Shown: in pieces, positions 37,769 to 59,789 of the stretch
How positions within the stretch are numbered: position 1 is the first letter of the stretch
Layout of the letters: each line of letters begins with the position of its first letter
Made by a program: the position numbers and the translations under genes
Sequence record: PV287714.1
Origin: Escherichia phage HMD-9
Length of the DNA: 64,000 nucleotides
Direction: 5' to 3' (one strand)
The notes under the pieces: model-generated
Told to the model about the DNA's origin: nothing
Seen by the model: only the letters and a program-made list of their open reading frames with translations
The model's database searches: none

Positions 37769-39356
<1,588 letters not shown>

Positions 39357-39383
39357 AATAAAATGGGCCTTGCGGCCCACTCC

Positions 39384-40562
39384 TTAAAAGTATTTTTTAA
39401 AACTCATCATAACTTTATCATCAACATCATTATCAATCTGTGCTACAAGATAAGATGACAGTTCTACTTCTTGCGGTGCAGATTGAACATTATCAGAATT
39501 AAGATATTCACGAATCCAAGGATACGGATGTTTAACCGGAGCATCGGTAATTGGACATGGAAGACCACACTGTTTCATACGAGATACAGTTAAGTAATCA
39601 ATAAAGCTCCACATGCTATTTGTATTTAATCCAGGAACATCGCCATCTTTAAATAAATGAACTGCCCAATCTTTTTCTTGGCGGTTAACTTCCATGAAAA
39701 TATCAACTGCTTCTTGTTCACACTCTTGAGCAATTTTAACCCATTCATCGCCATCAGTACCGGATTGAAGTTGACGAATAATATATTGAGTGCCTTTAAG
39801 GTGAAGCTGCTCATCACGAGCAATGAACTTCATAATCTTGGCATTACCTTCCATGATTTCCATGTTTTTGTGGAAGTTAAATGTACAGGCGAAAGATACA
39901 TAAAAACGAATAGCTTCCAATGCGTTGATTACATGAAGGCAGAGGTAAAGAGATTTCATTAGCGCTCGTTTAGCTTCGGCTTCTTGTTTAATAGCTCGAT
40001 TTAAACGAAAATCAGCATCAGGAGATTCTTTAGCTAGTTCTACGAATTCTTTAGCATTTTCCCATTCACGGGTCTTCTTAAGAACATCATCGTAGTAGCG
40101 ACCAATGGACTCGGCACGTTTCATAATATCTTCATCTAATACAATCTCATCAAATACCTTTGACGGATCAGTATAAAGATTTCGCATAATATGAGTGTAT
40201 GAACGACTGTGAATAGTTTCGCTAAAAGTCCATGTAGCAACCCATGTATCAAGACTTGGGTCTGAAATTAACGACATAAGTACAGCAGACGGTGCACGAC
40301 CCTGAATGCTATCTAGAAGTGATTGATACTTCAGGTTATTAGTAAAAATATCTTGCTGATACTGAGGAAGCTTGTTAAATTGTGCAGCATCCATCATCAA
40401 GTTTACTTCTTCCGGACGCCAGAAAAATGACAAAGACTTCTCAATAAGTTCTTCAAATACTCGATGCCGTTGAATATCATATCGAGCTAAACCCAATCCA
40501 GAACCAAAAAACATCGGCTCAGTCAAAATATTAACAGGTGATGTATTAAAAACAGTACTCAT
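39384..40562 (-). CDS. nrdB: ribonucleotide reductase small (R2) subunit, uninterrupted
   Basis: 392-aa continuous ORF with no intron-like interruption. Confidence 0.93.
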   Translation of the reverse strand: MSTVFNTSPVNILTEPMFFGSGLGLARYDIQRHRVFEELIEKSLSFFWRPEEVNLMMDAAQFNKLPQYQQDIFTNNLKYQSLLDSIQGRAPSAVLMSLISDPSLDTWVATWTFSETIHSRSYTHIMRNLYTDPSKVFDEIVLDEDIMKRAESIGRYYDDVLKKTREWENAKEFVELAKESPDADFRLNRAIKQEAEAKRALMKSLYLCLHVINALEAIRFYVSFACTFNFHKNMEIMEGNAKIMKFIARDEQLHLKGTQYIIRQLQSGTDGDEWVKIAQECEQEAVDIFMEVNRQEKDWAVHLFKDGDVPGLNTNSMWSFIDYLTVSRMKQCGLPCPITDAPVKHPYPWIREYLNSDNVQSAPQEVELSSYLVAQIDNDVDDKVMMSFKKYF

Positions 40563-41200
40563 TTAGAATCCTTAAATTTACATTTATCATAATGCCATCT
40601 TAAAGCATTACCTTTATTAACTTTCTTTCCACAATGCGGACACGGCGGATACTCTGCACCTTGTTTAGTTCTCAAAGAAATCAAATCGCGGGTTTCTTTA
40701 GTATGAGGAACATCTCTCGTTGGAGAGATTGTACCATACATTGGATTAAGCACGCCGACTTTAGCAGCAGCTATATTCTTTTTAGCTTCTTCAGTTTTAG
40801 GTTTTCTCATGCGAGCTAAATGCTCTTTAGTAAATTTCCTTCCTTTAAGAGCTCTACTTATCTTTTCTCTGGTTTCTATAGAAACTTCACGTCCTATAGC
40901 AGCTCCAGACAAACGTCGTCTACCTAATTCGTATAGTTGAGAAGAAATTTTATATGAGCGATTTTTACCAGTCAAGCACATTAAACCAAAAGCTTTCTTT
41001 AATCCCGGGGTGTCATATATTTTACATAAAAGCCAATGCGCTATAAAATGCTCTCTACCTGTTAATTCAACTAAATTTTCTTTATCATCAGAACCTCCCA
41101 TACATCTAGGGATTATATGATGAGTCTCTTTATATCCTAATAAAGGTTCCCGGGTTTGTGCCCGGGAAATTAAACTGTTATATACGTTTTGATAATTCAT
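40559..41200 (-). mobile_element. mobE: free-standing HNH homing endonuclease (MobE-like) between nrdA and nrdB
   Basis: 213-aa ORF with HNH motif HHIIPRCMGGSDDKENLVELTGREHFIAH and C-terminal CxxC pair; overlaps nrdA stop (TAATG) and nrdB start (ATGA). Confidence 0.75.
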
Positions 41201-43464
41201 TACAATTTACACGCTGCGCAATCTTCAGCTTTTGGAGTTTCTATTTCATAATCATCAGTACCGGAACCATCACGAGTATTATGATAATAGAAGTTTTTAA
41301 TGCCATAATACCATCCGTATAGCATGTCATCAATCATTACAGACATTGGAACCTTTCCTTTTGGAAAAATCTGCGGGTCATAATATGTATTCGCTGAAGC
41401 TGATTGACATACCCATTTAAGCATAATAGCTACCTGCGTAAGATAAGGTTTATTACCTTTCTTAGCTAATTTCCATGTATAATCATATAGGTCTATGTTA
41501 TGTTCAATATTGGGCACGACTTGATTAAAGGAACCCTCTTTTGATTCTTTAACAGAGACTGGTCCGCGTGGAGGCTCGATACCGTTTGTACTGTTGGAAA
41601 CTTGGGAAGATGACTCACATGGCATAAGTGCTGATAATGTGCTATTACGGATGCCAAAGAGCTTAAGGTCTTCCCGCAGCGACGACCAGTCACAAACGTA
41701 TTTTGGAGCTGCGATTTGGTCAATCTTTTTATTGTACCAGTCGATAGGTAATTCGCCTCGAGACCAACGAGTGTCTGAATAATATTCGCAAGGTCCTTTT
41801 TCTTTGGCGAGCTTAATGGATGCTTTAATGAGTCCATACTGTAGTCTCTCAAATAGTTCATGTGTTAAATCGTTAGCATCTTCATAAGAAGCAAAGTTAC
41901 TTGCCAGCCAAGCTGCATAGTTAGTAACACCTACACCAAGATTTCGACGCTTTTTAGCTTTTTCTGCTTCAGGAACTGGATATCCTTGGTAATCCAAAAG
42001 ATTATCAAGAGCGCGAACTTGAACTTCTGCCAATTCATTAATTTTATCTTGGTCTTGCCAATCGAAGTTATCTAACACAAATGCAGATAACGTACACAAT
42101 CCAATTTCGGCATCAGGACTATTCACATCATTTGTTGGAATAGCAATTTCACAACACAAGTTACTCTGACGAATAGGTGCCTTTTCACGAATAAACGGAG
42201 TATAGTTATTCGTATTATCAATGAACTGTACATAAATCCTTGCTGTTCCTGATCGTTCAGTCATGAGCAATTCAAACAGTTCACGGGCTTTAATACGCTT
42301 TTTACGAATATTAGGGTCTTTTTCTGCGGCTTCGTATAATTCACGGAAACGGTCTTGGTCTTTAAAATAAGAATAATAAAGCTCACCACCCATTTCATGT
42401 GGACTGAACAAAGTAATGTAGTCGTTCTTTCCAAAACGTTCCATCATTAGGTCATTCAGCTGGACGCCATAATCCATATGACGGATACGGTTTTCTTCTA
42501 CGCCTTTGTTATTTTTCAAAACGAGAAGATTTTCAACTTCCAAATGCCAAATAGGATAATAAGCAGTAGCAGCGCCGCCACGAATTCCACCCTGTGAGCA
42601 TGATTTAACAGCAGTCTGAAAATGTTTCCAAAAAGGAATAACACCAGTATGACGTACTTCACCTGTACCAATCTTAGAACCTTCGGCACGAATCATACCA
42701 ACGTTAATACCAATTCCAGCGCGTTTGGAGATATATTCAACAATTGAAGCGGAAGCCTTGTTGATAGACTTCAGCGAATCACCCGCCTCAATAACAACGC
42801 ATGAACTAAACTGCCGAGTTGGAGTACGGCAACCAGCCATAATAGGAGTTGGTAATGAAATCTGTCGAGTAGATACTGCTTCATAAAAACGAATAACGTG
42901 TTTTAGTCTATCAACAGGTTCATCTTGATGCAATGCCATTCCAATAGTCATAAATGCAAACTGTGGAGTTTCATAAATTTGACCAGTGGTTTTATCTTTA
43001 ACTAGATATTTTTCTTTTAATTGCATCGCCCCGGAATAAGTAAATTCCATATCCCGCTCATGCTTAATTTTTGATTCTAAAAATGTAATTTCTTCTGCTG
43101 AATATTTTGACAGCAGTTCAGGGTCATATTTACCTTCATTTACACAGTAAGAAATATGGTCAATAAATGAACGGGGCTCATACTGCCCGTAAACATGCTT
43201 ACGAAGAGCGAACATTAAACAGCGTGCAGCTACATATTGATAATCAGGCTCTTCAACTGAAATAGAATTCGCAGCAGCCTTAATTACAATGGTTTGAATG
43301 TCATCAGTGGTCATTCCATCACGGAGATATGATTTAATATTTTCATATAATTCATAAGGATCTACAGATGTTCCTTCAGCTGCCCAAGATAAAACTTTAA
43401 TAATTTTTTGCGGGTCAAAGCTCTGAGAAACACCACTACTTTTGATAACATTAATTAATTGCAT
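41200..43464 (-). CDS. nrdA: ribonucleotide reductase large (R1) subunit
   Basis: 754-aa ORF; size as T4 NrdA. Confidence 0.95.
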   Translation of the reverse strand: MQLINVIKSSGVSQSFDPQKIIKVLSWAAEGTSVDPYELYENIKSYLRDGMTTDDIQTIVIKAAANSISVEEPDYQYVAARCLMFALRKHVYGQYEPRSFIDHISYCVNEGKYDPELLSKYSAEEITFLESKIKHERDMEFTYSGAMQLKEKYLVKDKTTGQIYETPQFAFMTIGMALHQDEPVDRLKHVIRFYEAVSTRQISLPTPIMAGCRTPTRQFSSCVVIEAGDSLKSINKASASIVEYISKRAGIGINVGMIRAEGSKIGTGEVRHTGVIPFWKHFQTAVKSCSQGGIRGGAATAYYPIWHLEVENLLVLKNNKGVEENRIRHMDYGVQLNDLMMERFGKNDYITLFSPHEMGGELYYSYFKDQDRFRELYEAAEKDPNIRKKRIKARELFELLMTERSGTARIYVQFIDNTNNYTPFIREKAPIRQSNLCCEIAIPTNDVNSPDAEIGLCTLSAFVLDNFDWQDQDKINELAEVQVRALDNLLDYQGYPVPEAEKAKKRRNLGVGVTNYAAWLASNFASYEDANDLTHELFERLQYGLIKASIKLAKEKGPCEYYSDTRWSRGELPIDWYNKKIDQIAAPKYVCDWSSLREDLKLFGIRNSTLSALMPCESSSQVSNSTNGIEPPRGPVSVKESKEGSFNQVVPNIEHNIDLYDYTWKLAKKGNKPYLTQVAIMLKWVCQSASANTYYDPQIFPKGKVPMSVMIDDMLYGWYYGIKNFYYHNTRDGSGTDDYEIETPKAEDCAACKL

Positions 43465-43781
43465 AAGTCCTCAACTTGAAAATCGTCTTTAAACAATCGG
43501 TTAACTATATGAGCTATTATATCACCATGACACGGCTTTGGTTTACATGTGCATCCTAGCCTCATTCCACGTAAAGGCTCTAAATGTGCTTTAGTTATTT
43601 CTCCGGATTTAATTCGACGTATAAAATCTTTTTTGAATAATTCAATGGCAGCCTCCCGGCTGCCAGCATCTTTACCGACGTAATTTCCCCAAAATGTACC
43701 ACGGTGAATATTAACATCAAAGTCGGATTTATATTTATTCACTACCTGGCATAGACGGCCCGCGCGGTGATAATTCGTCAT
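43455..43781 (-). CDS. hypothetical protein (start uncertain)
   Basis: 108-aa ORF; its first 47 nt overlap the upstream ORF, so the true start may be the internal GTG. Confidence 0.5.
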
Positions 43782-43998
43782 ATTGTTTTTCCGTTAAAAC
43801 AGTAATATCATAGTAACAATCTGAAGAAGTTTTAACTGTAGAAATTTTATTATCAAAATACTCACGAGTCATTTTATGAGTATAATATTTTTTGCCGTAA
43901 ATGATAATAGGCTGATTTGGTCCTGGAACTTCTAACTCGCTTGGGTTAGGAAGTGTAAAAAGAACTACACCAGAAGTATCTTTAAATCGTAAAATCAT
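43735..43998 (-). CDS. hypothetical protein
   Basis: 87-aa ORF with GTGAGGA RBS. Confidence 0.5.
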
Positions 43999-44021
43999 AT
44001 ATCCTCACAATTAATAATTAA

Positions 44022-44333
44022 TTACACCGCCATTTTTCCTTTAATAGGAGGGTGTGATTCGTAACCTTTAAGAACGAAATCTTTAGGCCTGAGTTTAAGA
44101 ATGTATTCCAATTGTTCTTTAGTAGAAAGATAACGGAATTTATAAGGCAATCCGCCTATTACCAGTTCACAAAGCTCTTTAGGTTCACGACGCAAAATTT
44201 CTTTACATTGTTCTACGTGATTCATATAGATATGAGTATTACCGCCAGAAAATATCAAATCTCCTGGAATAAGATTACACATCTTAGCTACAATATGAAC
44301 CAACGCAGCATATGATGCAATGTTGAATGGAAG
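44022..44333 (-). CDS. td: thymidylate synthase, exon 2 (103 codons + stop)
   Basis: Begins CTT CCA TTC (LPF...) immediately after intron 3' end ...CATAATG; exon1+exon2 = 286 aa, the T4 TS length. Confidence 0.9.
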   Translation of the reverse strand, partial: LPFNIASYAALVHIVAKMCNLIPGDLIFSGGNTHIYMNHVEQCKEILRREPKELCELVIGGLPYKFRYLSTKEQLEYILKLRPKDFVLKGYESHPPIKGKMAV

Positions 44334-44587
44334 CATTATGTTCAGATAAGGTCGTTAATCTTATCCCGGAATTATATCCAGCTGCATGTCACCATACAGA
44401 TCAGACTATATCTCCATCTTGATGAAGCAAGATGTCTATCGTTTCGAGTCACTTGACCCTACTCCCCAAAGGGATAGTCGTTAGGCATTTAGTTCAAAAG
44501 AACATTTAGCACGGGATTGTCTACTAGAGAGGTTCCCCGTTTAGATAGATTACAAGTATAAGTCACCTTATACTCAGGCCTCAATTA
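44334..44587 (-). ncRNA. group I self-splicing intron in td, 254 nt, without a homing-endonuclease ORF
   Basis: Minus-strand sequence TAATTGAGGCCTGAGTATAAGGTGACTTATAC...GGATATAATTCCGGGATAAGATTAACGACCTTATCTGAACATAATG matches the T4 td intron ends as recalled; where T4 carries the I-TevI loop there is only GTTCTTTTGAAC. Confidence 0.8.
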
Positions 44588-45136
44588 ACCCAAGAAAACA
44601 TCTACACTTCTTTGGTACCATTGTAAATCAAGATAACCATTACGCACATTAAACTGATAGAACATATGACAGGGCGGTAATGCCATTTGATTGATTTCAG
44701 CTGGATTCCATGCTGAAACGATTTGACGTCGATCAGTTGGTAATTTTTTAATACGATCAATAGTTTCAACTAATTGATCCACACCACCGAAATCACGCCA
44801 TTGTTTACCGTATATAGGACCAAGTTCACCACTATGATATCCTAGGTCTTTAGCCTGGTTTTCATAGTTATCGTCCCAAATAGTTTTACCTTGAATAAGA
44901 CTACCATGAGTGCGAAGACGTAAATCATTAACATTGGTAGAACCGGAAATAAACCATAGAAGCTCAGCAATGCAAGCTTTCCAAGCGAGCTTCTTAGTCG
45001 TTACTGCAGGAAAACCTTTAGTTAAATCCCAGCGTAATTTAGTACCGAACAAAGCAATTGTTCCTGTGCCTGTTCGGTCATCGGTTTCATAGCCATTTTC
45101 AAAAATGTCTTTAATTAAATCTTGGTATTGTTTCAT
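44588..45136 (-). CDS. td: thymidylate synthase, exon 1 (183 codons)
   Basis: MKQYQDLIKDIFENGYE... ending ...VDVFLG at the 5' splice site; in-frame TAA lies in the intron. Confidence 0.9.
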
Positions 45137-45180
45137 TTAGTACCTTATATAAATTATAATACATTTTATGAAGCTAATAA

Positions 45181-45528
45181 TCAATACGGTTTAGCATCAA
45201 ATTTTCTTTCAATTTCAGGCGTAAAATACAATTCTTTACCACGCTTGGAAAAGCGACCAATAATATGATAATTATTCTCATCAAACGTGATATTGCCGAT
45301 ATCCATAGCTTTCAACCAAATATCGATATTTCTGTCAAGCTTTATATCAAAATTCCAATACGGAGAATTATTACCAAAAATACTACAAGCGGATTCAGTG
45401 AAACAACTGCTATAAATCTTGTCTTTAGGAACTACTAATTGATAGACGCCTTTAATAAACTGAGGACCCTGCCATTTTGGTTGTTTCGCGTCTTTTTCTA
45501 ATAGAATAGGGTAATAATTAAAGTTCAT
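45181..45528 (-). CDS. orphan 115-aa protein encoded by an insertion between frd and td
   Basis: ORF-track start is GTG; ATG at 45528 gives MNFNYYPILLEKDAKQPKWQGPQF...; no motif recognised. Confidence 0.5.
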   Translation of the reverse strand: MNFNYYPILLEKDAKQPKWQGPQFIKGVYQLVVPKDKIYSSCFTESACSIFGNNSPYWNFDIKLDRNIDIWLKAMDIGNITFDENNYHIIGRFSKRGKELYFTPEIERKFDAKPY

Positions 45529-45548
45529 ATTTTCCGCCACGTGTTATT

Positions 45549-46375
<827 letters not shown>

Positions 46376-46385
46376 ATTATTTTCC

Positions 46386-46628
46386 TTAAACAGACTTTTT
46401 CACAATTTTCCAATCAGCTTTAAACTGTTCAACGTCAGAATGGTAAATCCAGAATCCTGCGCTTTCTCCATCCTCATAAAGAGGGCATCCATCGCATTCA
46501 TCTTCCCATCCCATATCACGCAAAAGACGTTCAGCTTTTTCAACAAGTTCAGAATCTTTACCGATGATATTAAAATACCATTTACCCCTAACTTCTGAAT
46601 CTTTAATGCTCTGACGTTGTAATCTCAT
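46386..46628 (-). CDS. hypothetical small protein
   Basis: 80-aa ORF with AAGGAGAA RBS downstream of an early promoter. Confidence 0.5.
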   Translation of the reverse strand: MRLQRQSIKDSEVRGKWYFNIIGKDSELVEKAERLLRDMGWEDECDGCPLYEDGESAGFWIYHSDVEQFKADWKIVKKSV

Positions 46629-46653
46629 TTTATTCTCCTTAGTTGATAGGGTA

Positions 46654-46683
46654 ATAATATCACACTACTACCCTTCTGTAAAC
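46654..46683 (-). promoter_or_regulatory. early promoter (GTTTAC -35, TATTAT -10)
   Basis: Minus strand GTTTAC-N18-TATTAT. Confidence 0.45.
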
Positions 46684-47063
46684 TACTTTTTGAAAGTTTT
46701 TCGCAAAAGTTCAATGATTTCATCTACATTGTTTTCGTCAACAATGCAGTGAATTTTTGTTACGCCAGAAACCTTGTCTTCGACTTCGTCTTCTTCAGAA
46801 GTCGGTTCTTTATACTCACGAAAACAATGAAATTCGTCTTCGCAAATTTCTAAAAGTCTATCTTTGAGATAAAAATGCTTTCCATTTGCGCATTCAATGT
46901 GTTTTACTGCTTTATATCCATTAGCGAAGGAAACTTCTTTAACTTCAAACCATCCGCCATTATCTCGAATAGCTTTAACTATTGATGAATTAGAACGTGG
47001 ACTATAATTAATAAATGTATCAATAAGTCTTGGAACAAGTTCATACTTTCTACCAGTATACAT
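46683..47063 (-). CDS. hypothetical protein
   Basis: 126-aa ORF with GAGGAAAA RBS. Confidence 0.5.
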   Translation of the reverse strand: MYTGRKYELVPRLIDTFINYSPRSNSSIVKAIRDNGGWFEVKEVSFANGYKAVKHIECANGKHFYLKDRLLEICEDEFHCFREYKEPTSEEDEVEDKVSGVTKIHCIVDENNVDEIIELLRKTFKK

Positions 47064-47107
47064 TGCGTTTTCCTCATTTTAATAGGGGCTTGATAGCCCC
47101 TTGATAA

Positions 47108-47335
47108 TTACTGCTCAATAAATCCAGTGTAAAATTCTACATCTTCAGCATCCATACCGTCACAATATTCATTAACCATAAATTGTTTAAGACGATTTAA
47201 AGGACCTTCAATAGCAACTGAAACATTGCAGTTAGGATCATTTAGTGCGCTTGTAATACGGAGTTCAGGATAACGATTACGAATAATTTCTTCAATATAT
47301 TCAAAATCAACAACATCAATATCAATTTTAGCCAT
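47108..47335 (-). CDS. hypothetical small acidic protein
   Basis: ORF-track ORF (83 aa) trimmed to the ATG with AAAGAGGAAAA RBS (75 aa). Confidence 0.45.
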
Positions 47336-47378
47336 GTTATTTTCCTCTTTAATCATCATCAGTATTGCCGATAGTTGT

Positions 47379-47408
47379 ATAGTACCATAGTCCTTGTTGT
47401 ATGTAAAC
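47379..47408 (-). promoter_or_regulatory. early promoter (GTTTAC -35, TACTAT -10)
   Basis: Minus strand GTTTAC-N18-TACTAT. Confidence 0.45.
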
Positions 47409-47432
47409 TGTTATGTGAAAAAATTTTTGAAA

Positions 47433-47460
47433 TAAAAAAGGGGACCTCTAGGGTCCCCAA
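47433..47460 (-). terminator. rho-independent terminator after gene 32
   Basis: GGGGACC-loop-GGTCCCC hairpin followed by TTTTTTATTT on minus strand. Confidence 0.75.
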
Positions 47461-47480
47461 TTAATTAGTAATATAATCTA

Positions 47481-48389
47481 TTAAAGGTCATTCAAAAGGT
47501 CATCCAGGTCCGTGTCATCAGCACTAGATGAACTGCCAGAGCTTGAGCTCATAAAATCATCTTCAGTTTTTGTTTTGAAGTCATCAACATTGAATGCATC
47601 CAAATCATCAGCAACTTTATCGGCTTTCTTGGCAGCAGTTGCTGCGGCACCACCCATAGCAGCAGTTCCCATAACTTGACTGAACTTAGTGCTCAGTTCT
47701 TCAAACGATTTGAATTTATCTTTAGAAGTCATTTCAGAAAGGTCAACCATTTGTTCGAACAGTTCTTTCTGGAAAGATTCATCATCAATGTTTGGAATCG
47801 CAGATTGATTCAGGAATTTAGATTCGTCGTAGTTACTAAAACCAGAAACTTGTTTAACTTTCAGTACAAAGTTAGCACCTTCCCACGGACAAGTTACATC
47901 AACCGGAGTTTCACCCATTTCAACATCAACTGCAATCATTGCATTGATTTTATCCCAGATTTTCTTACCGAAACGGTATTTAAATACTTTACCTTCATTT
48001 TCTGGAGCAGCTGGGTCTTTTACTACAAGAATGTTAGCCCAGTAAGAAATTTTACGTTTAACAAGACCGTACTCTTTATTGTCAGTATTATACAAATCAT
48101 TTTTACTGATGTACTGACATACTGGACAAGAATCGTAATCACCGTGGGTAGATGAACATGTTTCAATATACCATTTACCATTTTTCTTGAAACCGTGATT
48201 TACAAGAATTGCGAACGGTGCTTGTTCATCATTTTTAGACGGAAGAAAACGAATTACTGCTTGACCGTTACCCGCATTGTCGAGTTTCAGTTTCCACTCG
48301 CCTTTATCTTCAGAAGAAAAACCACCTTTATTTCCAGCCAGTTTAGCCATTTGTGCAGCGAGTTCAGCAGTAGATTTACGTTTAAACAT
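47481..48389 (-). CDS. 32: single-stranded DNA-binding protein
   Basis: 302-aa ORF with acidic Ser/Asp-rich C-terminal tail; size as T4 gp32. Confidence 0.95.
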
Positions 48390-48458
48390 TTTTATTTCCT
48401 TTTTAATTTAATTAACAGTTGGTGCTATGACGATGTATGACCTCATAGCTGGTCAGTG
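48390..48458 (-). promoter_or_regulatory. gene 32 translational operator (pseudoknot plus AU-rich unstructured leader)
   Basis: Minus strand CACTGACCAGCTATGAGGTCATACATCGTCATAGCACC (TGACC/GGTCA and GCTATGA/TCATAGC pairings) followed by AACTGTTAATTAAATTAAAAAGGAAATAAAAATG; matches the T4 gp32 autoregulatory leader as recalled. Confidence 0.7.
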
Positions 48459-48488
48459 AGATAATTATAATCTATTTATAATAAGCAA

Positions 48489-49142
48489 TTAATACTTACA
48501 AGATTTCACAGTTTCAATAAAAACACTTTTAGCTTTCTGTGAATCAATATTTAAAATTTTTCTATAAGCCTTTAACTTTATAGAATAATTATTCCAGACT
48601 AAATTATCAGTCTGTTCATCATGTTTATCAATTATATTTAAAAACGAATCAAGCAAGATAAACGTCTCAAACGAAATTATATTCGATTGAAGTAGTTTAA
48701 AAATATAACTTGATTGAACTTTTGGATTATACTCAAAGATTTCTTTAAAAGCAGAAACTTCAACTTTTTTACTAAAATAATAAATGTTGCGAATATCTTC
48801 TTCAAACTTAAATTTAATTTGCTTTAAGCGTCCGATATATTCACGATAAAACACAAGTGCATCAGCGTCAGAGATGTCACCAATCCAAGCATCTTGGTTA
48901 GCAACAAGATTGCTTATAAAGATTAAAGCAAGTTCCTTTAATTTATATTTTTCTGATAACTTCTGGAAAAAATACTTATCCCTTCGCTTTTGATAAGCGG
49001 CATCAGACACCCGCATGCACCAATTATACTTAATTACATCATACTTTCCATTCATATGTTGTTTTATCATTAAGTATAATTTATAAACTGATTTACCATC
49101 AATGTATCTTTCACCACCAGCAGGCATGCGGAGTTTAATCAT
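48489..49142 (-). CDS. 59: helicase loader
   Basis: 217-aa ORF; size/position as T4 gp59. Confidence 0.9.
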   Translation of the reverse strand: MIKLRMPAGGERYIDGKSVYKLYLMIKQHMNGKYDVIKYNWCMRVSDAAYQKRRDKYFFQKLSEKYKLKELALIFISNLVANQDAWIGDISDADALVFYREYIGRLKQIKFKFEEDIRNIYYFSKKVEVSAFKEIFEYNPKVQSSYIFKLLQSNIISFETFILLDSFLNIIDKHDEQTDNLVWNNYSIKLKAYRKILNIDSQKAKSVFIETVKSCKY

Positions 49143-49477
49143 AGTAGAAAATCTAATGTATTAGTTTTTTCACAACGAACAACAGAAGGACGTAAAAGAT
49201 TTTCGTCAATAGCTTCTGATTGAATTTTTTCAATTATTCCCGAAGGAATAAATTTAGCAAATTGAGTTTCAGGAATAGAATTTTCTTCCAAGAATGCTGT
49301 TGTAGCTTCAAGATAACTCATTCCAAACTCTTCTACCATTTTTTCAATAATAAATCCATTTTCTTGGCGGTCAAGAAGTTTTGCTATTTCATCCTTTTCT
49401 TTCTTAATTGAAAGTTCTTTTTCTGAAAGACCGGTCTCATCGACCGGACGAATATCATTTAGAGAAAACTGTGTCAT
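49139..49477 (-). CDS. 33: late transcription co-activator
   Basis: ORF-track start is TTG; ATG gives 112 aa (T4 gp33 length). Confidence 0.85.
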   Translation of the reverse strand: MTQFSLNDIRPVDETGLSEKELSIKKEKDEIAKLLDRQENGFIIEKMVEEFGMSYLEATTAFLEENSIPETQFAKFIPSGIIEKIQSEAIDENLLRPSVVRCEKTNTLDFLL

Positions 49478-49724
49478 AAAGTTCAACTACCTCTTCAGTT
49501 TCAGCTTCAAACACATCACGGTTATCTTTATGATACAAAGCTAATAGACGATTAAACATCTTACCATCAACGCCAAGTTCATCTTTGGCACGAATTCGAA
49601 TATCTTTAATCAATTCATTATAACCAGAAATTTTCAGTTTATGGTCAGATGCTTCTTTGATAAATTTAGCTAAGTCTTCGCCATGGATAGCTTCATCAAA
49701 TTCAACCATTTCTTTTTTAGCCAT
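49455..49724 (-). CDS. dsbA: double-stranded DNA-binding protein
   Basis: 89-aa ORF; size/position as T4 DsbA. Confidence 0.8.
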   Translation of the reverse strand: MAKKEMVEFDEAIHGEDLAKFIKEASDHKLKISGYNELIKDIRIRAKDELGVDGKMFNRLLALYHKDNRDVFEAETEEVVELYDTVFSK

Positions 49725-49732
49725 TATTCACC

Positions 49733-50650
49733 TCAAAATTCATTAATGCTATTAGTTAATTTAGAAAGACCCGCTTTTACAAAATATGAATAAATTTTGC
49801 CACGCGGTGGTAATTTATATGAATTATAGTAATTCACAATGTTTGAAGCAATATTATCAGGAATATAATCAAAATCAATTAGAACTAAATTTTCTTTGTA
49901 TCGATTATATTCAGATTCGGTGAGAAGCACCTTAGCTTGCTCACGGTCATTAGCAATAGCTTCAACAATAGAGGTTTTCATTGAAGGAGTTCGTTCACCT
50001 TCAACTCTGGTAAACCAAAAGTCAGATCGTACTTTAACTGAAGCAACGTTATCCTTTTTGTCGCCTTTAAGGATTTTAGTCATACAGTCAATTTCAGCAG
50101 AACCGCTTTTAATTTTAACCCATTTCTTGTGCATCGGTGACCATTGCTTAACATTTGGATACTTATGAAGTTGAGTAAAGTCGCTATCCGATGAAATGAT
50201 TAAAATCTTATGTCCTTCTAAAGAGAACTTTTTAACAAGAACAGCAATATGGTCATCTGCTTCATACTTATCAATATCCATAACGATGTATGGCATATAA
50301 GCTTTCAATTCATCTATAACTTTATGGCTGGATTCAAAATAACCTTCCCAGTCCCAAGTAGATTCTTCTCGTGCTTTTCCACGGTTTTTCTTATAATAAT
50401 AAGCAAAATCACGACGCCAGTATCCAGATTTCGCGTTATCAATACACAACACAATTTTAGTGTATCCAAGAGTTTTTGCTTTTTTGACATTAAACTTAAT
50501 TGAGTTCAATATCAAATGACGAACCATTGATAAATTAATTTTTTCTTTATCTGGGAAGTTTACCAAAGCAGTTGAAAGCGCAATTTGACTAAAGTCAATT
50601 AAGCAGATTCCTTCTTTGTAATCTTCATCCAGCATCATTTCTAAATCCAT
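49733..50650 (-). CDS. rnh: RNase H / 5'-3' flap exonuclease
   Basis: ORF-track start is TTG; ATG with GAGG RBS gives 305 aa (T4 Rnh length). Confidence 0.9.
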   Translation of the reverse strand: MDLEMMLDEDYKEGICLIDFSQIALSTALVNFPDKEKINLSMVRHLILNSIKFNVKKAKTLGYTKIVLCIDNAKSGYWRRDFAYYYKKNRGKAREESTWDWEGYFESSHKVIDELKAYMPYIVMDIDKYEADDHIAVLVKKFSLEGHKILIISSDSDFTQLHKYPNVKQWSPMHKKWVKIKSGSAEIDCMTKILKGDKKDNVASVKVRSDFWFTRVEGERTPSMKTSIVEAIANDREQAKVLLTESEYNRYKENLVLIDFDYIPDNIASNIVNYYNSYKLPPRGKIYSYFVKAGLSKLTNSINEF

Positions 50651-50712
50651 ATGAACCTCGTTCAATTAGTGAGATTTCTATTATATACCATCCAAATCTT
50701 AAAGTAAACAAG

Positions 50713-50720
50713 TATAAATA
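50713..50720 (+). promoter_or_regulatory. late promoter TATAAATA (gene 34)
   Basis: Exact TATAAATA 34 nt upstream of gene 34 ATG. Confidence 0.65.
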
Positions 50721-50754
50721 CTTATTATTGAAAACACAATAGGAGCCCGGGAGA

Positions 50755-53700
50755 ATGGCCGAGATTAAAAGAAAGTTCAGAGCAGAAGATGGTCTGGACG
50801 CAGGTGGCGATAAAATAATCAACGTAGCTTTAGCTGATCGTACCGTAGGAACTGACGGTGTCAACGTTGATTACTTAATTCAAGAAAACACAGTTCAACA
50901 ATACGATCCAACTCGTGGATATTTAAAAGATTTTGTAATCATTTATGATAACCGCTTTTGGGCTGCTATAAATGATATTCCAAAACCAGCAGGAGCTTTT
51001 AATAGCGTACGCTGGAGAGCATTACGTACTGATGCTAATTGGACAACTGTTTCATCAGGACCTTATCAATTAAAGTCAGGCGAATCAATTTCAGTTGATA
51101 CTGCAGCCGGTAATGACATTACATTTACTTTACCATCTTCCCCAATTGATGGAGATACTATCGTTCTCCAAGACATTGGAGGAAAACCTGGAGTTAACCA
51201 AGTTTTAATTGTAGCTCCAGTACAAAGTATTGTAAACTTTAGAGGCGAACAAGTACGTTCAGTACTAATGACTCATCCAAAATCGCAGATAGTTTTAATT
51301 TTTAGTAATCGTCTGTGGCAAATGTATGTAGCTGATTATAGCAGAGAAGCTGCAGTTGTAACACCGGCAAGTCTTTATCAGGCGCAATCTAACGATTTTA
51401 TCGTGCGTAGATTTACTTCCGCTGCGCCGATTAATATTAAACTTCCGAGATTTGCTAATCATGGCGATATTATTAATTTCGTCGATTTAGATAAACTAAA
51501 TCCGCTTTATCATACAATTGTTACTACATACGATGAAACGACTTCAATACAAGAAGTTGGAACTCATTCCATTGAAGGCCGTACAACGATTGACGGTTTC
51601 TTGATGTATGATGATAATGAAAAATTATGGAGACTGTTTGACGGGGATAGTAAAGCACGTTTACGTATTATAACGACTAATTCAAACATTCGCCCAAATG
51701 AAGAAGTTATGGTATTTGGAGCGAATAACGGAACAACCCAAACAATTGAACTTCAGCTTCCAACTGATATTTCTATTGGTGATACTGTTAAAATTTCCAT
51801 GAATTACATGAGAAAAGGCCAAACAGTTAAAATCAAAGCTGCTGGTGAAGATAAAATTGCTTCTTCAGTTCAATTGCTGCAATTCCCAAAACGTTCAGAG
51901 TATCCGCCTGAAACTAAATGGGTGACTGTTCAAGAATTAGTTTTTAACGGCGAAACTAATTATGTTCCAGTTTTACAGCTTGCTTATATAGAAGATTCTG
52001 ATGGAAAATACTGGGTTGTACAACAAAACGTTCCAACTGTAGAAAGAGTTGATTCTTTAAATGATTCTACTAGAGCAAGATTAGGCGTAATAGCTTTAGC
52101 TACACAAGCTCAAGCAAATGCTGATTTAGAAAATTCTCCGCAAAAAGAATTAGCAATTACACCAGAAACATTAGCTAACCGTACTGCTACAGAAACTCGT
52201 AGAGGTATCGCAAGAATAGCAACTACTGCTCAAGTGAATCAGAACACCACATTCTCTTTTGCTGATGATATTATCATCACTCCTAAAAAGCTGAATGAAA
52301 GAACTGCCACAGAAACTCGTAGAGGCGTTGCTGAAATTGCTACGCAGCAGGAAACTAATGCAGGTACTGATGATACTACAATCATCACTCCTAAAAAGCT
52401 TCAAGCTAGACAAGGTTCTGAATCATTATCTGGTATTGTAACCTTTGTATCTACCGCAGGAGCTACTCCAGCTTCTAGTCGTGAATTAAATGGTACAAAC
52501 GTTTATAATAAAAACACTAATAATTTAGTTGTTTCGCCTAAAGCTTTGGATCAGTATAAAGCTACTCCAACCCAACAAGGTGCAGTAATTTTAGCAGTTG
52601 AAAGTGAAGTAATTGCTGGACAAAGCCAAGAAGGATGGGCAAATGCGGTTGTAACGCCAGAAACGTTACATAAAAAGACATCAACTGATGGAAGAATTGG
52701 TTTAATTGAAATTGCTACGCAAAGTGAAGTTAATACTGGAACTGATTATACTCGTGCAGTCACTCCTAAAACTTTAAATGATCGTAAAGCAACTGAAAGT
52801 TTAAGTGGTATAGCTGAAATTGCTACACAAGTTGAATTCGACGCAGGCGTCGACGATACTCGTATCTCTACACCATTAAAAATTAAAACTAGATTTAATA
52901 GTACTGATCGTACTTCTGTTGTTGCTCTATCTGGATTAGTTGAATCAGGAACTCTCTGGGACCATTATACCCTTAATATTCTTGAAGCAAATGAGACACA
53001 GCGTGGTACACTTCGCGTAGCTACACAAGTTGAAGCTGCTGCAGGAAAATTAGATAATGTTTTAATAACTCCTAAAAAGCTTTTAGGTACTAAATCTACT
53101 GAAGCACAGGAAGGTGTTATTAAAGTTGCAACCCAGTCTGAAACTGTGACTGGAACATCAGCAAATACTGCTGTATCTCCAAAAAATTTAAAGTGGATTG
53201 TGCAGAGTGAACCTACCTGGGCAGCTACTACTGCGGTAAGAGGTTTTGTTAAAACTTCATCTGGTTCAATTACGTTCGTTGGTAATGATACGGTAGGTTC
53301 AACACAGCCATTAGAATCATATGAGAAAAATAGCTATGCGGTATCACCATATGAATTAAACCGTGTATTAGCAAATTATTTGCCGTTAAAAGCAAAAGCT
53401 GCTGATACAAATTTATTGGATGGTCTAGATTCATCTCAGTTCATTCGTAGGGATATTGCACAGACGGTTAATGGTTCACTAACCTTAACCCAGCAAACGA
53501 ATCTGAGTGCCCCTCTTGTATCATCTAGTACTGGTGAATTTGGTGGTTCTTTAGCTGCTAATAGAACATTTACCATCCGTAATACCGGACTCCCGACCAA
53601 TATCATTTTCGAAAAAGGTCCTGCAACCGGTTCAAACCCGGTTCAGTCAATGAGCATCCGTGTATGGGGTAACCAGTATGGCGGCGGCTCGGATACGACT

Positions 53701-54624
53701 CGTTCTACCGTATTTGAAGTTGGTGATGAAACGTCTAATCACTTTTATTCTCAACGTAATAAAGACGGGAATATAACGTTTAGCATTAATGGTACTGTGA
53801 TGCCAAAAAATGTAACTGCTTCGGGTATGTTGAATGTGAATGGCGCTGCAGCATTCGGTAGTTCAGTTAATGTAACCGGCGAAATTATTTCCAGAAATAC
53901 AAACGCTTTCCGCGCTATCAGTAGCCAATACGGGTTCTTTATTCGTAATGATAGCTCTAATGTCTATTTTATGCTGACCGATCAAGGCGATCAGACTGGT
54001 GGATATAATGCATTACGTCCTTTAACCATTAATAATGCATCTGGTCAAGTAACGATTGGTGAAAGCTTAATTATTGCCAAAGGTGCAACTATTAACTCAG
54101 GTGGTTTAACTGTTAACTCGAGAATTCGTTCTCAAGGCACTAAAACATCTAATTTATATACTCGTGCACCAACATCTGATACTGTAGGATTCTGGTCAAT
54201 CGATGTTAATGATTCAGCTACTTATAACCAGTTCCCAGGTTATTTTAAAATGGTTGAAAAAACTAATGAAGTGACTGGGCTTCCATACTTAGAACGTGGC
54301 GAAGAAGTTAAATCTCCTGGTACACTGACTCAGTTTGGTAATACACTTGATTCGCTTTACCAAGATTGGATTACTTATCCAACGACGCCAGAAGCGCGTA
54401 CCACTCGCTGGACCCGTACATGGCAGAAAACCAAAAACTCTTGGTCAAGTTTTGTTCAGGTATTTGATGGAGGTAACCCTCCTCAGCCATCTGATATCGG
54501 TGCTTTACCATCTGATAATGCTATAATGGGGAATCTTACTATTCGTGATTTCTTACGAATTGGTAATGTTCGCATTGTTCCTGACCCAGTGAATAAATCT
54601 GTTAAATTTGAATGGATTGAATAA
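50755..54624 (+). CDS. 34: long tail fibre proximal subunit
   Basis: 1289-aa ORF; size as T4 gp34. Confidence 0.95.
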   Translation: MAEIKRKFRAEDGLDAGGDKIINVALADRTVGTDGVNVDYLIQENTVQQYDPTRGYLKDFVIIYDNRFWAAINDIPKPAGAFNSVRWRALRTDANWTTVSSGPYQLKSGESISVDTAAGNDITFTLPSSPIDGDTIVLQDIGGKPGVNQVLIVAPVQSIVNFRGEQVRSVLMTHPKSQIVLIFSNRLWQMYVADYSREAAVVTPASLYQAQSNDFIVRRFTSAAPINIKLPRFANHGDIINFVDLDKLNPLYHTIVTTYDETTSIQEVGTHSIEGRTTIDGFLMYDDNEKLWRLFDGDSKARLRIITTNSNIRPNEEVMVFGANNGTTQTIELQLPTDISIGDTVKISMNYMRKGQTVKIKAAGEDKIASSVQLLQFPKRSEYPPETKWVTVQELVFNGETNYVPVLQLAYIEDSDGKYWVVQQNVPTVERVDSLNDSTRARLGVIALATQAQANADLENSPQKELAITPETLANRTATETRRGIARIATTAQVNQNTTFSFADDIIITPKKLNERTATETRRGVAEIATQQETNAGTDDTTIITPKKLQARQGSESLSGIVTFVSTAGATPASSRELNGTNVYNKNTNNLVVSPKALDQYKATPTQQGAVILAVESEVIAGQSQEGWANAVVTPETLHKKTSTDGRIGLIEIATQSEVNTGTDYTRAVTPKTLNDRKATESLSGIAEIATQVEFDAGVDDTRISTPLKIKTRFNSTDRTSVVALSGLVESGTLWDHYTLNILEANETQRGTLRVATQVEAAAGKLDNVLITPKKLLGTKSTEAQEGVIKVATQSETVTGTSANTAVSPKNLKWIVQSEPTWAATTAVRGFVKTSSGSITFVGNDTVGSTQPLESYEKNSYAVSPYELNRVLANYLPLKAKAADTNLLDGLDSSQFIRRDIAQTVNGSLTLTQQTNLSAPLVSSSTGEFGGSLAANRTFTIRNTGLPTNIIFEKGPATGSNPVQSMSIRVWGNQYGGGSDTTRSTVFEVGDETSNHFYSQRNKDGNITFSINGTVMPKNVTASGMLNVNGAAAFGSSVNVTGEIISRNTNAFRAISSQYGFFIRNDSSNVYFMLTDQGDQTGGYNALRPLTINNASGQVTIGESLIIAKGATINSGGLTVNSRIRSQGTKTSNLYTRAPTSDTVGFWSIDVNDSATYNQFPGYFKMVEKTNEVTGLPYLERGEEVKSPGTLTQFGNTLDSLYQDWITYPTTPEARTTRWTRTWQKTKNSWSSFVQVFDGGNPPQPSDIGALPSDNAIMGNLTIRDFLRIGNVRIVPDPVNKSVKFEWIE

Positions 54625-54632
54625 GAGGTATT

Positions 54633-55748
54633 ATGGAAAAATTTATGGCAGAGTTTGGACAAGGATATGTCCAAACGCCATTTTTATCGGAAAGTAATTC
54701 AGTAAGATACAAAATAAGCATAGCGGGTTCTTGCCCGCTTTCTACAGCAGGACCATACGTTAAATTTCAGGATAATCCTATCGGAAATCAAACATTTAGC
54801 GCAGGCCTTCATTTAAGAGTTTTTGACCCTTCAACAGGAGCATTAGTTGATAGTAAGTCATATGCTTTTTCGACTTCAAATGATACTACATCAGCTGCTT
54901 TTGTCAGTTTCATGAATTCTTTTTCAAACAACAGACTTGTTGCTATATTAACCAGTGGAAAGGTTAATTTTCCTCCTGAAGTGGTATCTTGGTTAAGGGG
55001 AGCAGGAACGTCTGCTTTTCCATCAGATTCAGTATTGTCAAGATTTGACGTATCATATGCTGCTTTTTACACTTCTTCTAAAAGAGCTATTGCATTAGAA
55101 CATGTTAAACTGAGTAATAGAAAAAGCACAGATGACTATCAAACTATTTTAGATGTTGTATTTGACAGTTTAGAAGACGTTGGAGCTACGGGATTTCCTA
55201 AAAGAACATATGAAAGCGTTGAGCAATTTATGTCAGCGGTTGGCGGAACCAATAACGAAATTGCGCGATTGCCAACTTCAGCTGCTATAAGTAAACTCTC
55301 TGATTATAATTTAATTCCTGGCGATGTTCTTTATCTTAAAGCTCAGTTATATGCCGATGCAGATTTACTTGCGCTTGGAACTACAAATATATCTATCCGT
55401 TTTTATAATGCATCGAATGGATATATTTCCTCTACCCAAGCTGAGTTTACTGGACAAGCTGGGTCTTGGGAATTAAAGGAAGATTATGTAGTTGTTCCTG
55501 AAAATGCAGTCGGATTTACTATATATGCGCAGAGAACTGCTCAAGCTGGTCAAGGCGGAATGAGGAATTTAAGCTTTTCTGAAGTATCAAGAAATGGCGG
55601 CATTTCAAAACCTGCCGAATTTGGCGTCAACGGTATTCGCGTTAATTATGTCTGTGAATCGGCTTCACCTCCAGATATAATGGTACTTCCTACACAAGCC
55701 TCTTCTAAAACTGGCAAAGTGTTTGGGCAAGAATTTAGAGAAGTTTAA
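54633..55748 (+). CDS. 35: long tail fibre hinge (knee) protein
   Basis: 371-aa ORF; size/position as T4 gp35. Confidence 0.9.
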   Translation: MEKFMAEFGQGYVQTPFLSESNSVRYKISIAGSCPLSTAGPYVKFQDNPIGNQTFSAGLHLRVFDPSTGALVDSKSYAFSTSNDTTSAAFVSFMNSFSNNRLVAILTSGKVNFPPEVVSWLRGAGTSAFPSDSVLSRFDVSYAAFYTSSKRAIALEHVKLSNRKSTDDYQTILDVVFDSLEDVGATGFPKRTYESVEQFMSAVGGTNNEIARLPTSAAISKLSDYNLIPGDVLYLKAQLYADADLLALGTTNISIRFYNASNGYISSTQAEFTGQAGSWELKEDYVVVPENAVGFTIYAQRTAQAGQGGMRNLSFSEVSRNGGISKPAEFGVNGIRVNYVCESASPPDIMVLPTQASSKTGKVFGQEFREV

Positions 55749-55753
55749 ACTGA

Positions 55754-55780
55754 GGGAGCCTTCGGGTTCCCTTTTTCTTT
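55754..55780 (+). terminator. rho-independent terminator after gene 35
   Basis: GGGAGCC-TTCG-GGTTCCC hairpin followed by TTTTTCTTT. Confidence 0.7.
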
Positions 55781-55787
55781 ATAAATA
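55780..55787 (+). promoter_or_regulatory. late promoter TATAAATA (gene 36)
   Basis: Exact TATAAATA 23 nt upstream of gene 36 ATG. Confidence 0.65.
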
Positions 55788-55810
55788 ATATTAAAATAAA
55801 GGGGCATATA

Positions 55811-56500
55811 ATGGCTGATTTAAAAGTAGGTTCAACTGTGGGTGGATCTGTCATTTGGCATCAAGGAAATTTTCCATTGAATTCAGCCGGTGACGATGTA
55901 CTCTATAAATCATTTAAAATATATTCAGAATATAATAAACCGCAGGCAGCTGATAACGATTTCGTTTCTAAAGCTAATGGTGGCACAAAGTCTCAAGGTT
56001 TCCAAAAAGAAGTAGAATTTAAAGAAGGCGTTAAGATTTCTGCAACGTTTTCTGGAGGTTCAGACCTGAATGGGTTATATTCTGGCAATGGAGATGGAGC
56101 TTCCAGAGAAAAAGCTAACATGGATTTACGTTCATGGTACGGCATTGGTATTTGGAACACATGCACAAGTGATGGGATACAGGGACGCACAATCTGGTTT
56201 AATGCCAGGAGTGGTAAAGTTGAAACAGTTGGCAATATTGTTTCTGGCCAACAAGTTATTTCTAATGCTTCAGGACCGACCGCCCCGGCACACTTAACTC
56301 GCAAAGATTATGTTGATGGAGCAATAAATATTGTTACAGCAAACGCAAACTCTAGGGTATTACGCTCTGGAGATACTATGACAGGAAATTTAACTGCGCC
56401 AAACCTTTTTTCACAGAATCCTGCATCTCAACCCTCACATGTTCCACGATTTGATCAAATTGTTATTAAGGATTCTGTTCAAGATTTCGGCTATTATTAA
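55811..56500 (+). CDS. 36: long tail fibre distal connector
   Basis: 229-aa ORF; position as T4 gp36. Confidence 0.9.
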   Translation: MADLKVGSTVGGSVIWHQGNFPLNSAGDDVLYKSFKIYSEYNKPQAADNDFVSKANGGTKSQGFQKEVEFKEGVKISATFSGGSDLNGLYSGNGDGASREKANMDLRSWYGIGIWNTCTSDGIQGRTIWFNARSGKVETVGNIVSGQQVISNASGPTAPAHLTRKDYVDGAINIVTANANSRVLRSGDTMTGNLTAPNLFSQNPASQPSHVPRFDQIVIKDSVQDFGYY

Positions 56501-56508
56501 GAGGACTT

Positions 56509-59500
56509 ATGGCTACTTTAAAACAAATACAATTTAAAAGAAGCAAAACTGCAGGAGCACGTCCTGCCGCTTCAGTATTAGCCGAAGGTGAATTGGCTAT
56601 AAACTTAAAAGACCGTGTACTTTTTACTAAAGACGATCAAGGGAATATCATTGATCTGGGTTTTGCTAAGGGCGGTAGTATTGACGGGAATGTTATTCAT
56701 AACGGTAACTACAACCAGACTGGCGATTACACTATAACCGGAGCTATTTCACAAAAGTCTGGACATTTTACTACTACCGGTAGTATAACAGCAACCGGTG
56801 ATGTCACAGCAAAATCTCGCCTAATGACTGATATAGGCGAAGTTTTGGTACGTAGTAATGGTACCGCACATGTTCGATTCCAGGATTTGGCTGATGGACG
56901 CGAAAGAGCTATAATTTATTCTCAAAACCGTACTGGGAATACCAAGCAAATATTGAACGTTCGTGTTCAGGATTACACTAATTCAACATCTAATACTTTT
57001 GCATTCAACGGTGACGGTTTATTTTATGCCCCATCTATTTCCGGCGGAACATCAGTAAAATCTCCAGTAATTTATACCAATACTGTTAATACAGACAGTA
57101 AGAATATTGGCGATTACGATATATCTTCATTAGCAAATAACACTCCATTGGCAGAAAGCGAAACGGCTATTAACCACCTCCGTGTTATGCGAAATGCTGT
57201 AGGATCTGGTATATTCCATGAAGTTAAAGATAATGATGGAATAACTTGGTATACCGGAGATGGCTTAGACACTTATCTTTGGTCGTTTACCTGGTCTGGT
57301 GGATTGAAAGCGGGTCATTCTATTTCTGTTGGTACTCCTGGTGGCAATAAAGGATACTCTGAATTAGGGACTGCTTCAATTTCTCTTGGTGATAATGATA
57401 CCGGGCTAAAATGGCATCAGGATGGATATTTCCAAACAGTAAACAACGGGACAAGAACTTTCACCTATGGCCCTACCGAAACACAAAGCCTTAGAAAAAT
57501 GGTTATGGGTTATTCTCCGGACGGGATTCTTATGACAACGCCGCCGACAGAAAACTATGCATTAGCCACTGTTGTTACTTATCATGATAATAACGCGTAT
57601 GGTGACGGTCAGACTCTTTTAGGATATTATCAAGGCGGTAATTATCATCACTATTTCCGCGGTAAGGGTACCACAAACATTAATACTCATGGCGGTTTGT
57701 TAGTTACTCCAGGTGATATTAATGTTATCGGTGGTTCGGTTAATATCGATGGTATAAATAATTCTTCTACCCTGCTATTTAGAGGCAACACGACCGGAGC
57801 TAGTTCAGTTGATAATATGACAATTTCCGTTTGGGGCAATACGTTTACTAATCCTAGTGTAGGTAATCGTAAAAACGTCATGGAAATTTCTGATGCAACT
57901 AGCTGGATGAGCTATATTCAAAGACTTACAACTGGTGAAGTAGAAATGAACGTTAACGGTTCATTTGAATCATCTGGTGTTACTGCTGGACATAGAGGAG
58001 TTCACACAACAGGCGAAATTTCATCCGGAGCAGTGAATGCGCTTCGCATTTGGAATGCAGATTATGGAGTCATTTTCCGTCGTTCAGAAAACAGTCTTCA
58101 TATTATTCCGACTGCTTACGGTGAAGGTAAAAATGGAAATATCGGTCCACTTCGCCCGTTCCGTATGGACCTTGATACAGGTAAAGTAAGTATTCCTAAT
58201 ATGGATACTACTAATTTGATTATGAACCCAAATGGTTCTATTAAATTTACTGGTCATGGTAATGGTACCGAGCTGTATGGTAATCAGTATGGGCAAGCGG
58301 CACCGATTTATCAAGAAATTAATAATGATTCCGCTTCTGCTTATATTCCAATTATAAAACAGAAATACTTAAATGGCGGTATAATGTGGTCTATGGGAAC
58401 AGAACTTAATTCCGGTGATTTTGTAATCCATAGAATTAATGCCGCCGGTGATGAAAACCGAATTATTAAATTTGATAGTAACTGCGTTCCGCATTTCCCG
58501 GATAACGTGCTGGTTGGCGGTGATATTAACATGAAAGGCGCGATGACTTTTGACGCCGGACGTTTAGGATCACGAGATTATTTTAAATTTAACCATTGGG
58601 GTGATAGTAATAATGCTCGTGATAACATCATCCAGTTAGAAGATAGTCAAGGCGCTCATTTTTCCACTGAACGTACTTTAGCGACTGGTGCAATTAAAAC
58701 TCGTTTCTTTGGCGAAACATTTACTGATGGTACATTATACCTAAATCAGATGAATAATAGCTCTGAACGATTCTCTATCAGAAATTGGGGAAATTCAGAA
58801 GTTGGTCGCGCGGCAGTGATGGAAGTCGGTGATTCCAAAGGTTATCACTTCTATACGGAACGCAGGACAGATAATAGTTTGGCGTTTGATGTTGCTGGCG
58901 TTTTTACCGTGCATGGACCTACCGGGATCACTATCAAAAACTCTGCTGGTGCACGACATATCTGGTTTAGAGATGATAGCGATGCAGAAAAGTCTGTTAT
59001 CTGGGCTACAGATGAGGGTATTTTACATATTCGCAATAACTATGGTGGAGCAGTTGCACATCGCTTCCAGGGCGCGATGTTTAAACTTAACGGACGTGTT
59101 CCTTATGCCGCAGATCAAGGAATTATTCGTGGTGAGGTTTCTGGCGGTGCTTATGTGGATTGGAGAAATCGCCCTGCTGGTTTGTTGCTTGACTGTCAAC
59201 AAAGCGTTGATAGTGCTCATGCCATTTGGAAAGCGGTTGATTGGGGGCGTAACTACATCGCTGCTTTGGATGTTCATATGCCAGGTAATAGTAATAATAC
59301 TGCAGCAGCGATTCTCCATGTTCAAGATGCTAATTATCAATTCCATGCAAGTGGAGAATTTCATGCCACTGGTAACGGAAGCTTTAACGATGTTTATATT
59401 CGATCAGACCGTCGCCTCAAAGAAAACATCGAAGATTATATAGGAAATGCAACTGATTTAATCGGTAAACTGAAAGTTAAAACCTACGATAAAGTTAAAT

Positions 59501-59757: not shown

Positions 59758-59761
59758 TAAC

Positions 59762-59780
59762 AAGGGGCATTGCCCCTTTG
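59762..59780 (+). terminator. hairpin after gene 37
   Basis: GGGGC-ATT-GCCCC then TTTGG. Confidence 0.45.
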
Positions 59781-59789
59781 GAGATAATT

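Follow-up and report, generated by a model that had tools for sequence, protein, structure and literature searches.

The 213-aa reading frame located between nrdA and nrdB in the window (the whole 64,000-nt stretch of Escherichia phage HMD-9, PV287714.1, that was analysed) is very probably the mobE gene of a T4-like Tequatrovirus in its T6/LZ7-type form, and regulation, nicking and homing like those of T4 would be expected of it. The locus is already known: the gene, its arrangement and its regulatory elements have counterparts on record, and nearly identical entries have been present in GenBank from 2005 on. The identity and position of MobE, its intact motifs and the regulatory sequence features of the gene were all observed directly. 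The locus was resolved into the following features:

41200..43464, minus strand: nrdA, 754 aa, with ATP-cone and ribonucleotide reductase large-subunit domains.
41198..41202, minus strand: TAATG, where the nrdA stop codon runs into the mobE start codon (RNA: UAAUGA).
40559..41200, minus strand: mobE, predicted free-standing HNH homing (nicking) endonuclease gene, T6/LZ7-type allele, 213 aa.
39384..40562, minus strand: nrdB, uninterrupted, 392 codons, Ribonuc_red_sm, with an empty T4 intron insertion site.
38946..39380, minus strand: denA, GIY-YIG, PHROG 1111, fourth gene of the row nrdA-mobE-nrdB-denA.

Both gene junctions reported in the first-pass annotation (TAATG with nrdA and ATGA with nrdB) can be read directly in the sequence. 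Base 41200 is common to the TAA of nrdA and the ATG of mobE, and bases 40562..40559 form the ATGA in which the nrdB ATG overlaps the mobE TGA. The two motifs that had been noted in the HNH product, HHIIPRCMGGSDDKENLVELTGREHFIAH and CPHCGKK, are likewise present in its translation. The arrangement had been likened to that of T4 mobE, and this likeness was borne out by the records of T4 (T4T) and T6, which annotate mobE at identical junctions, likewise with overlaps of one and four bases. We found no Shine-Dalgarno or ribosome-binding site in the 30 nt 5' of the mobE start (AGCTGAAGATTGCGCAGCGTGTAAATTGTA). Because this site is lacking at the TAATG overlap, the translation of mobE is likely coupled to that of nrdA. 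In T4, mobE also overlaps nrdA through UAAUGA and has no translation initiation region, which is suggestive of translational coupling (PMC2988022).

The reading frame matched PHROG 655 ('homing endonuclease', E=5e-64), Pfam NUMOD3 (E=2e-08) and Pfam HNH, the last over residues 24-44 and just over the gathering score (23.0 bits relative to a cut-off of 21.4). These matches rule out a chance reading frame. The comparison with MobE that had been suggested as a check was conducted with BLASTP and returned T4 MobE with 69% identity end to end (E=8e-116) and T6 MobE with 95% identity. The MobE of LZ7 (DQ178119) was identical at 210 of 213 residues, the three substitutions being G99 for E, R130 for H and A182 for T. 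The genes of LZ7 and T6 (MH550421, AY262134) also encode 213 aa and present the TAATG and ATGA junctions. Three motif regions were located in the protein:

41036..41128, minus strand: HNH catalytic motif region, residues 25-55, ETHHIIPRCMGGSDDKENLVELTGREHFIAH, Pfam HNH.
40673..40882, minus strand: four NUMOD3-like DNA-binding repeats, starting at residues 107, 124, 136 and 167.
40580..40642, minus strand: C-terminal C2HC zinc-finger-like motif CPHC-x12-H-x3-C, residues 187-207.

The conservation of these regions was assessed on an alignment of 35 homologous sequences, with identities down to about 35% and 18 invariant columns, all of which are retained in the window MobE (18/18). The HNH residues H27, H28, N42, H51 and H55 are present and invariant across the 35 homologues, as are C187, C190, H203 and C207 of the zinc-finger-like motif. 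The HNH stretch is the same as that of T4 MobE save G48 for A48, and the zinc-finger part is 100% identical to it. A mutated HNH motif, which would have spoken against the original reading of the gene, was looked for in the alignments with T4 MobE and the 35 homologues and rejected, since the residues are intact in both. The corresponding region matters in T4 MobE, where deletion of residues 33-62 abolishes the nick and causes mobE and the intron with the defunct I-TevIII to be inherited less often (PMC2790892).

The identity between the window and T4 proteins is distributed as a mosaic and amounts to 83% over residues 1-60, about 34% with a 17-aa gap over residues 61-133 and 100% over residues 134-213. 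Thus, T4 MobE resembles the window protein in its position, its overlaps, its HNH motif save one residue and its C-terminal 80 aa, but it differs from it in length (232 aa rather than 213 aa), in the sequence of its central ~73 residues (~34% identical) and in its number of NUMOD3-like repeats. Based on a regular-expression count, T4 MobE has five such repeats and the window MobE four, and the 17-aa alignment gap lies there. A sequence search of the PDB with the window MobE yielded marginal matches only (best E=0.22), and whole-chain structure searches for a fold likeness to solved HNH homing endonucleases of the I-HmuI-like class gave no significant match. When the entire window was scanned coarsely for motifs, no other reading frame with HNH, NUMOD3 or zinc-finger motifs was detected, although a scan this coarse may miss further homing endonuclease genes.

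Two regulatory features lie inside mobE, one at each end of the gene:

41147..41168, minus strand: intrinsic-terminator-like hairpin at the mobE 5' end, TTCCCGGG-CACAAA-CCCGGGAA followed by CCTTTATT, detected by a terminator scan.
40568..40608, minus strand: nrdB middle promoter and RBS, with MotA-box-like AATGCTT, TATGAT and AGGA, within the last mobE codons.

The first of these has an RNA fold of -16.5 kcal/mol (z = -3.3), relative to -16.7 kcal/mol for its T4 counterpart, which occupies the same codons. In T4, mobE lacks a dedicated promoter and is transcribed jointly with nrdA, and 30-50% of transcripts are terminated at a hairpin that lies 27 nt past the mobE AUG (PMC2790892). The window hairpin, with its 8-bp stem and 6-nt loop, matches the variant of the T4 mobE internal terminator found in LZ7 and RB15, in which the stem is shorter and the loop longer (PMC2790892). 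A hairpin was found at the same position in T4, T6, RB7, LF82-1, Boboto and a Proteus-phage-like locus (L008), with compensatory changes. Indeed, the stems read CCCGAGC/GCTCGGG in T4, T6 and RB7, CCCGGGC/GCCCGGG in Boboto and CCCGGG/CCCGGG in LZ7 and the window. The L008 locus, retrieved from IMG/VR and similar to Proteus phage phiP4-3, encodes at 3001..3624 a MobE relative with 52% identity and has kept both the nrdA-mobE-nrdB order and the TAATG overlap. Its hairpin forms a 9-bp stem (ATAGGGCGA/TCGCCCTAT) at codons 12-18 with a sequence wholly unlike that of the T-even hairpin, so that the stem has in effect covaried in its entirety. Because the stem has been kept across alleles by compensatory changes, these comparisons support a conserved role for the mobE hairpin, with termination itself demonstrated for the T4 allele alone. 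At the other end of the gene, a middle promoter located in the 3' end of T4 mobE drives nrdB (PMC2790892). The AATGCTT, TATGAT and AGGA elements found 5' of the nrdB ATG in the window are the features annotated in the T4 record X04140, and the middle promoter and RBS are identical between the two phages.

The first-pass annotation had also described nrdB as a continuous gene of 392 codons that, unlike its T4 homologue, contains no group I intron. The alignment with T4, T6 and GRNsp7 confirmed this description: the site of the 598-nt T4 intron, between TTCGCCT and GTACATTT, is unoccupied in the window, and the sequence is contiguous across the insertion point after TATGTATCTTT(T/C)GC(G/C)T. No group I intron was identified by Rfam in nrdB (39384..40562) at gathering thresholds. 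A small or degenerate intron, the finding that had been named as contrary to this view, was sought at the DNA level and rejected, as the gene is colinear with T2, T6 and the T4 exons and Rfam has no match there. Independently of the intron, nrdB contains a mosaic block at 39960..40085 on the minus strand (nt ~480-600 of the gene, aa ~160-200). The window and GRNsp7 carry one version of this block (392-aa protein), T4 and T6 carry another (388 aa) and T2 carries a third, so that the window differs here from T6, as it also does from LZ7. Relative to T2, the block presents 26-34 identical bases out of 60, compared with 53-60 out of 60 for most of the remaining gene.

The third mobile element that had been reported, a td intron that is present but devoid of a reading frame, was also recovered:

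44337..44590, minus strand: td group I intron, 254 nt, within td (44022..45136).

Its ribozyme core was matched by RF00028 (72.7 bits, 44382..44597 on the minus strand), the sole Rfam group I intron in the window. Aligned with the td genes of T4 and T2, the intron is missing the 762-nt segment in which T4 carries I-TevI, and a short hairpin (GTTCTTTTGAAC) is found instead. About nine deposited phages have a td intron of equal length, the best match being 236Ecol005PP (99.3%), and other forms are longer by 66 or 191 nt. The td intron lengths suggest a possible series of states of ORF loss.

We then considered how these elements are distributed across phages. The nrd region (39000..43600) matched 970 phage records by megablast, mostly T4-like phages of Escherichia, Shigella and Klebsiella, and the best match was Salmonella phage GRNsp7 (97.0%). 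Over the next 20 kb (43500..64000), the closest deposited genome is Escherichia phage 132 (94.6%), and the nearest relatives vary by segment. The window thus stems from a Tequatrovirus that has no identical counterpart among the deposited genomes. DNA resembling mobE of any kind was found in 125 records, and the allele of the window was found over at least 80% of its length in 48, with RefSeq duplicates and also ten LF82 isolates at 73% counted among them. Because the T4 nrdB intron was detected at a coverage of at least 80% in 118 records relative to the 970 records that match the nrd region, two counts that rest on different criteria, the intron-less nrdB is by these sequence counts the majority state in T4-like phages, and it is not unusual beside mobE. 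For most carriers of the window mobE allele, among them T6, the alignment to the window is not broken by an intron. A query with the td intron (window 44200..44740) was covered at 80% or more in 45 of 646 records, some of which are longer, ORF-containing forms. When the records listed for the mobE allele were set against those listed for the short td intron, GRNsp7 was the only one common to the two lists, and it is annotated with the layout seen in the window. The idea that the three-part profile is unique to the window was rejected, since GRNsp7 shares the HNH gene, the intron-less nrdB and the short td intron. The profile had been called distinctive, and this stands in the sense that it is uncommon and usable as a typing marker; it is not unique, however, given at least one other carrier, and the intron-less nrdB is itself common. 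The combination reflects the known mosaic assortment of mobile elements and is no new biological arrangement.

The region of nrdB in which MobE would be expected to act was compared between the window, T2, T6, GRNsp7 and T4:

40432..40449, minus strand: nrdB nt 114-131, counterpart of the T2 MobE nick region.

The nick made by T4 MobE has been mapped in T2 nrdB to nt 122-126, and nt 114-131 have been assigned to the catalytic domain of MobE (PMC2790892). Over these 18 bases, the window differs from the sensitive T2 at nine, and the corresponding sequences are GAGAAGTCTTTGTCA in the window, GAGAAATCTTTATCA in T6 and GAGCGGCAGATCAGT in T4. The downstream block TTGTCATTTTTCTGGCGTCC, which codes for LSFFWRP, is the same in the window and T2, and the presumed binding block is conserved in all phages compared. 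It has been proposed that the carrier genome is immune via polymorphisms at the nick region (PMC2790892), and the divergence of the window from T2 fits such self-immunity. At positions 40437 (nrdB codon 42), 40431 and 40422, beside the mapped nick site, the window has the synonymous codons AAG, TTG and TTC, which match the mobE-less T2. The same three positions read AAA, TTA and TTT or TTC in T6 and GRNsp7, and LZ7 differs at two of them. The T2-like AAG at codon 42 is a point against a T4-like mode of action; AAG occurs in some mobE carriers too (PMC2790892).

Extrapolating from the T4 experiments, expression, nicking and homing of the window MobE may be pictured as follows. The gene would be transcribed from the nrdA promoters, without a promoter of its own, and ribosomes terminating on nrdA would also drive its expression. 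The weak intrinsic terminator, some 30 nt past the mobE start, and the restart at an RBS-less UAAUG would hold this expression low, and the middle promoter and RBS in the 3' end of mobE would restore that of nrdB. During mixed infection with a mobE-less phage, MobE would bind the conserved FFWRPEE-coding part of nrdB and introduce a nick into the non-coding strand, a few bases to the upstream side, around nrdB nt 122-126. Through repair off the mobE-carrying genome, the recipient would acquire a copy of mobE together with its flanks, and the carrier nrdB would be guarded by synonymous and conservative substitutions in its nick region. The evidence for nicking and homing comes from crosses of T4 with T2 only, and the endonuclease activity of T4 MobE was never shown with purified protein; its authors concede that it may act via another nuclease (PMC2790892). 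It is conceivable that the target site or the nick spacing of the window MobE differs from that of T4, given an identity of only ~34% across its central 73 residues and its four NUMOD3 repeats as opposed to five.

This last point leads to an alternative in which the T6/LZ7-type MobE is active with a specificity unlike that of T4, in its nick position or its target, and would constitute a functionally distinct endonuclease at the same locus. The replaced linker and the missing NUMOD3 repeat are the grounds for this reading. The carriers of the two alleles also have different nrdB nick-region sequences (GAGAAGTCTTTGTCA and GAGAAATCTTTATCA as opposed to GAGCGGCAGATCAGT), and the 'MobE' of RB3 and RB7 illustrates that entire C-terminal halves have been swapped at the nrdA-nrdB site. 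However, the C-terminal 80 residues, which comprise two repeats and the zinc finger, do not differ from those of T4 MobE, and the presumed binding block of nrdB is conserved in every phage compared. We consider a changed specificity unlikely on these sequence comparisons. In a more specific form of this proposal, the T6/LZ7-type MobE and the nrdB 5' haplotype that accompanies it would have evolved together, and this MobE would nick at a position or sequence other than that of T4 MobE. We regard this form as quite unlikely; if true, the T4 and T6/LZ7 alleles could home against each other and would not be mutually immune.

Alternatively, mobE could be a decaying remnant that has been fixed in the lineage, drifts toward loss of function and is kept only for the nrdB promoter embedded in it. 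Homing endonuclease genes are known to degenerate, as exemplified by I-TevIII of T4, and it has been argued that the embedded middle promoter selects against the deletion of mobE (PMC2790892). Such selection would concern the DNA sequence rather than the encoded protein. Against this view, the reading frame extends over the full length, uninterrupted by frameshifts or stops, its invariant columns are all intact and close alleles from many phages share the same 213-aa length with 89-97% identity, which makes such decay very improbable. We retain the reading of the gene as a T6/LZ7-type mobE that probably acts as its T4 counterpart does.

Other systems place this locus in a broader context. LZ7 shares with the window its terminator variant, and T6 shares its intron-less nrdB. 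The T4 nrdB contains the intron with the defunct I-TevIII that is mobilised in trans by MobE, and the nrdB of the window offers no such intron. In RB3 and RB7, the annotated 'MobE' (243 aa) occupies the same nrdA-nrdB site with a near-identical HNH domain (the first ~60 aa) and the same hairpin, but its C-terminal half is unrelated and does not align past about residue 100. The RB7 gene annotated mobE (locus L090, 2001..2732) has just this N-terminal HNH part of about 100 aa in common with T4, T6 and the window. Since the C-terminal half is unrelated, the whole DNA-binding module appears to have been exchanged at the same insertion site. This form agrees with the description of Mob proteins as sharing an HNH head and differing in their C-terminal domain (PMC2790892). 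By description (PMC2988022), two further systems also target the aerobic ribonucleotide reductase genes of T4-like phages: the mobE of Aeromonas phage Aeh1, which differs from that of the window in being inserted within nrdA and splitting it, and Hef of phage U5, which takes the place of mobE and is an endonuclease of another kind. Finally, a scan of IMG/VR yielded 80 distant MobE relatives with at most 52% identity. Because only three of these are near nrd genes, two of them with the nrdA-HNH-nrdB order, they are unfit for a survey of nick-site haplotypes.

These results indicate that mobE (T6/LZ7-type), with an internal terminator and an embedded nrdB promoter, is the appropriate label for the locus, and that Tequatrovirus isolates can be typed by whether or not they carry mobE, the nrdB intron and I-TevI, which serve as mosaic markers. 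At least three protein forms (T4-type, T6/LZ7-type and RB3-type) occupy this site with one common HNH head. The nrdA-nrdB site is thus a natural series in which to study the exchange of DNA-binding modules in HNH homing endonucleases and a possible accompanying change of specificity, which makes it a modestly useful lead.
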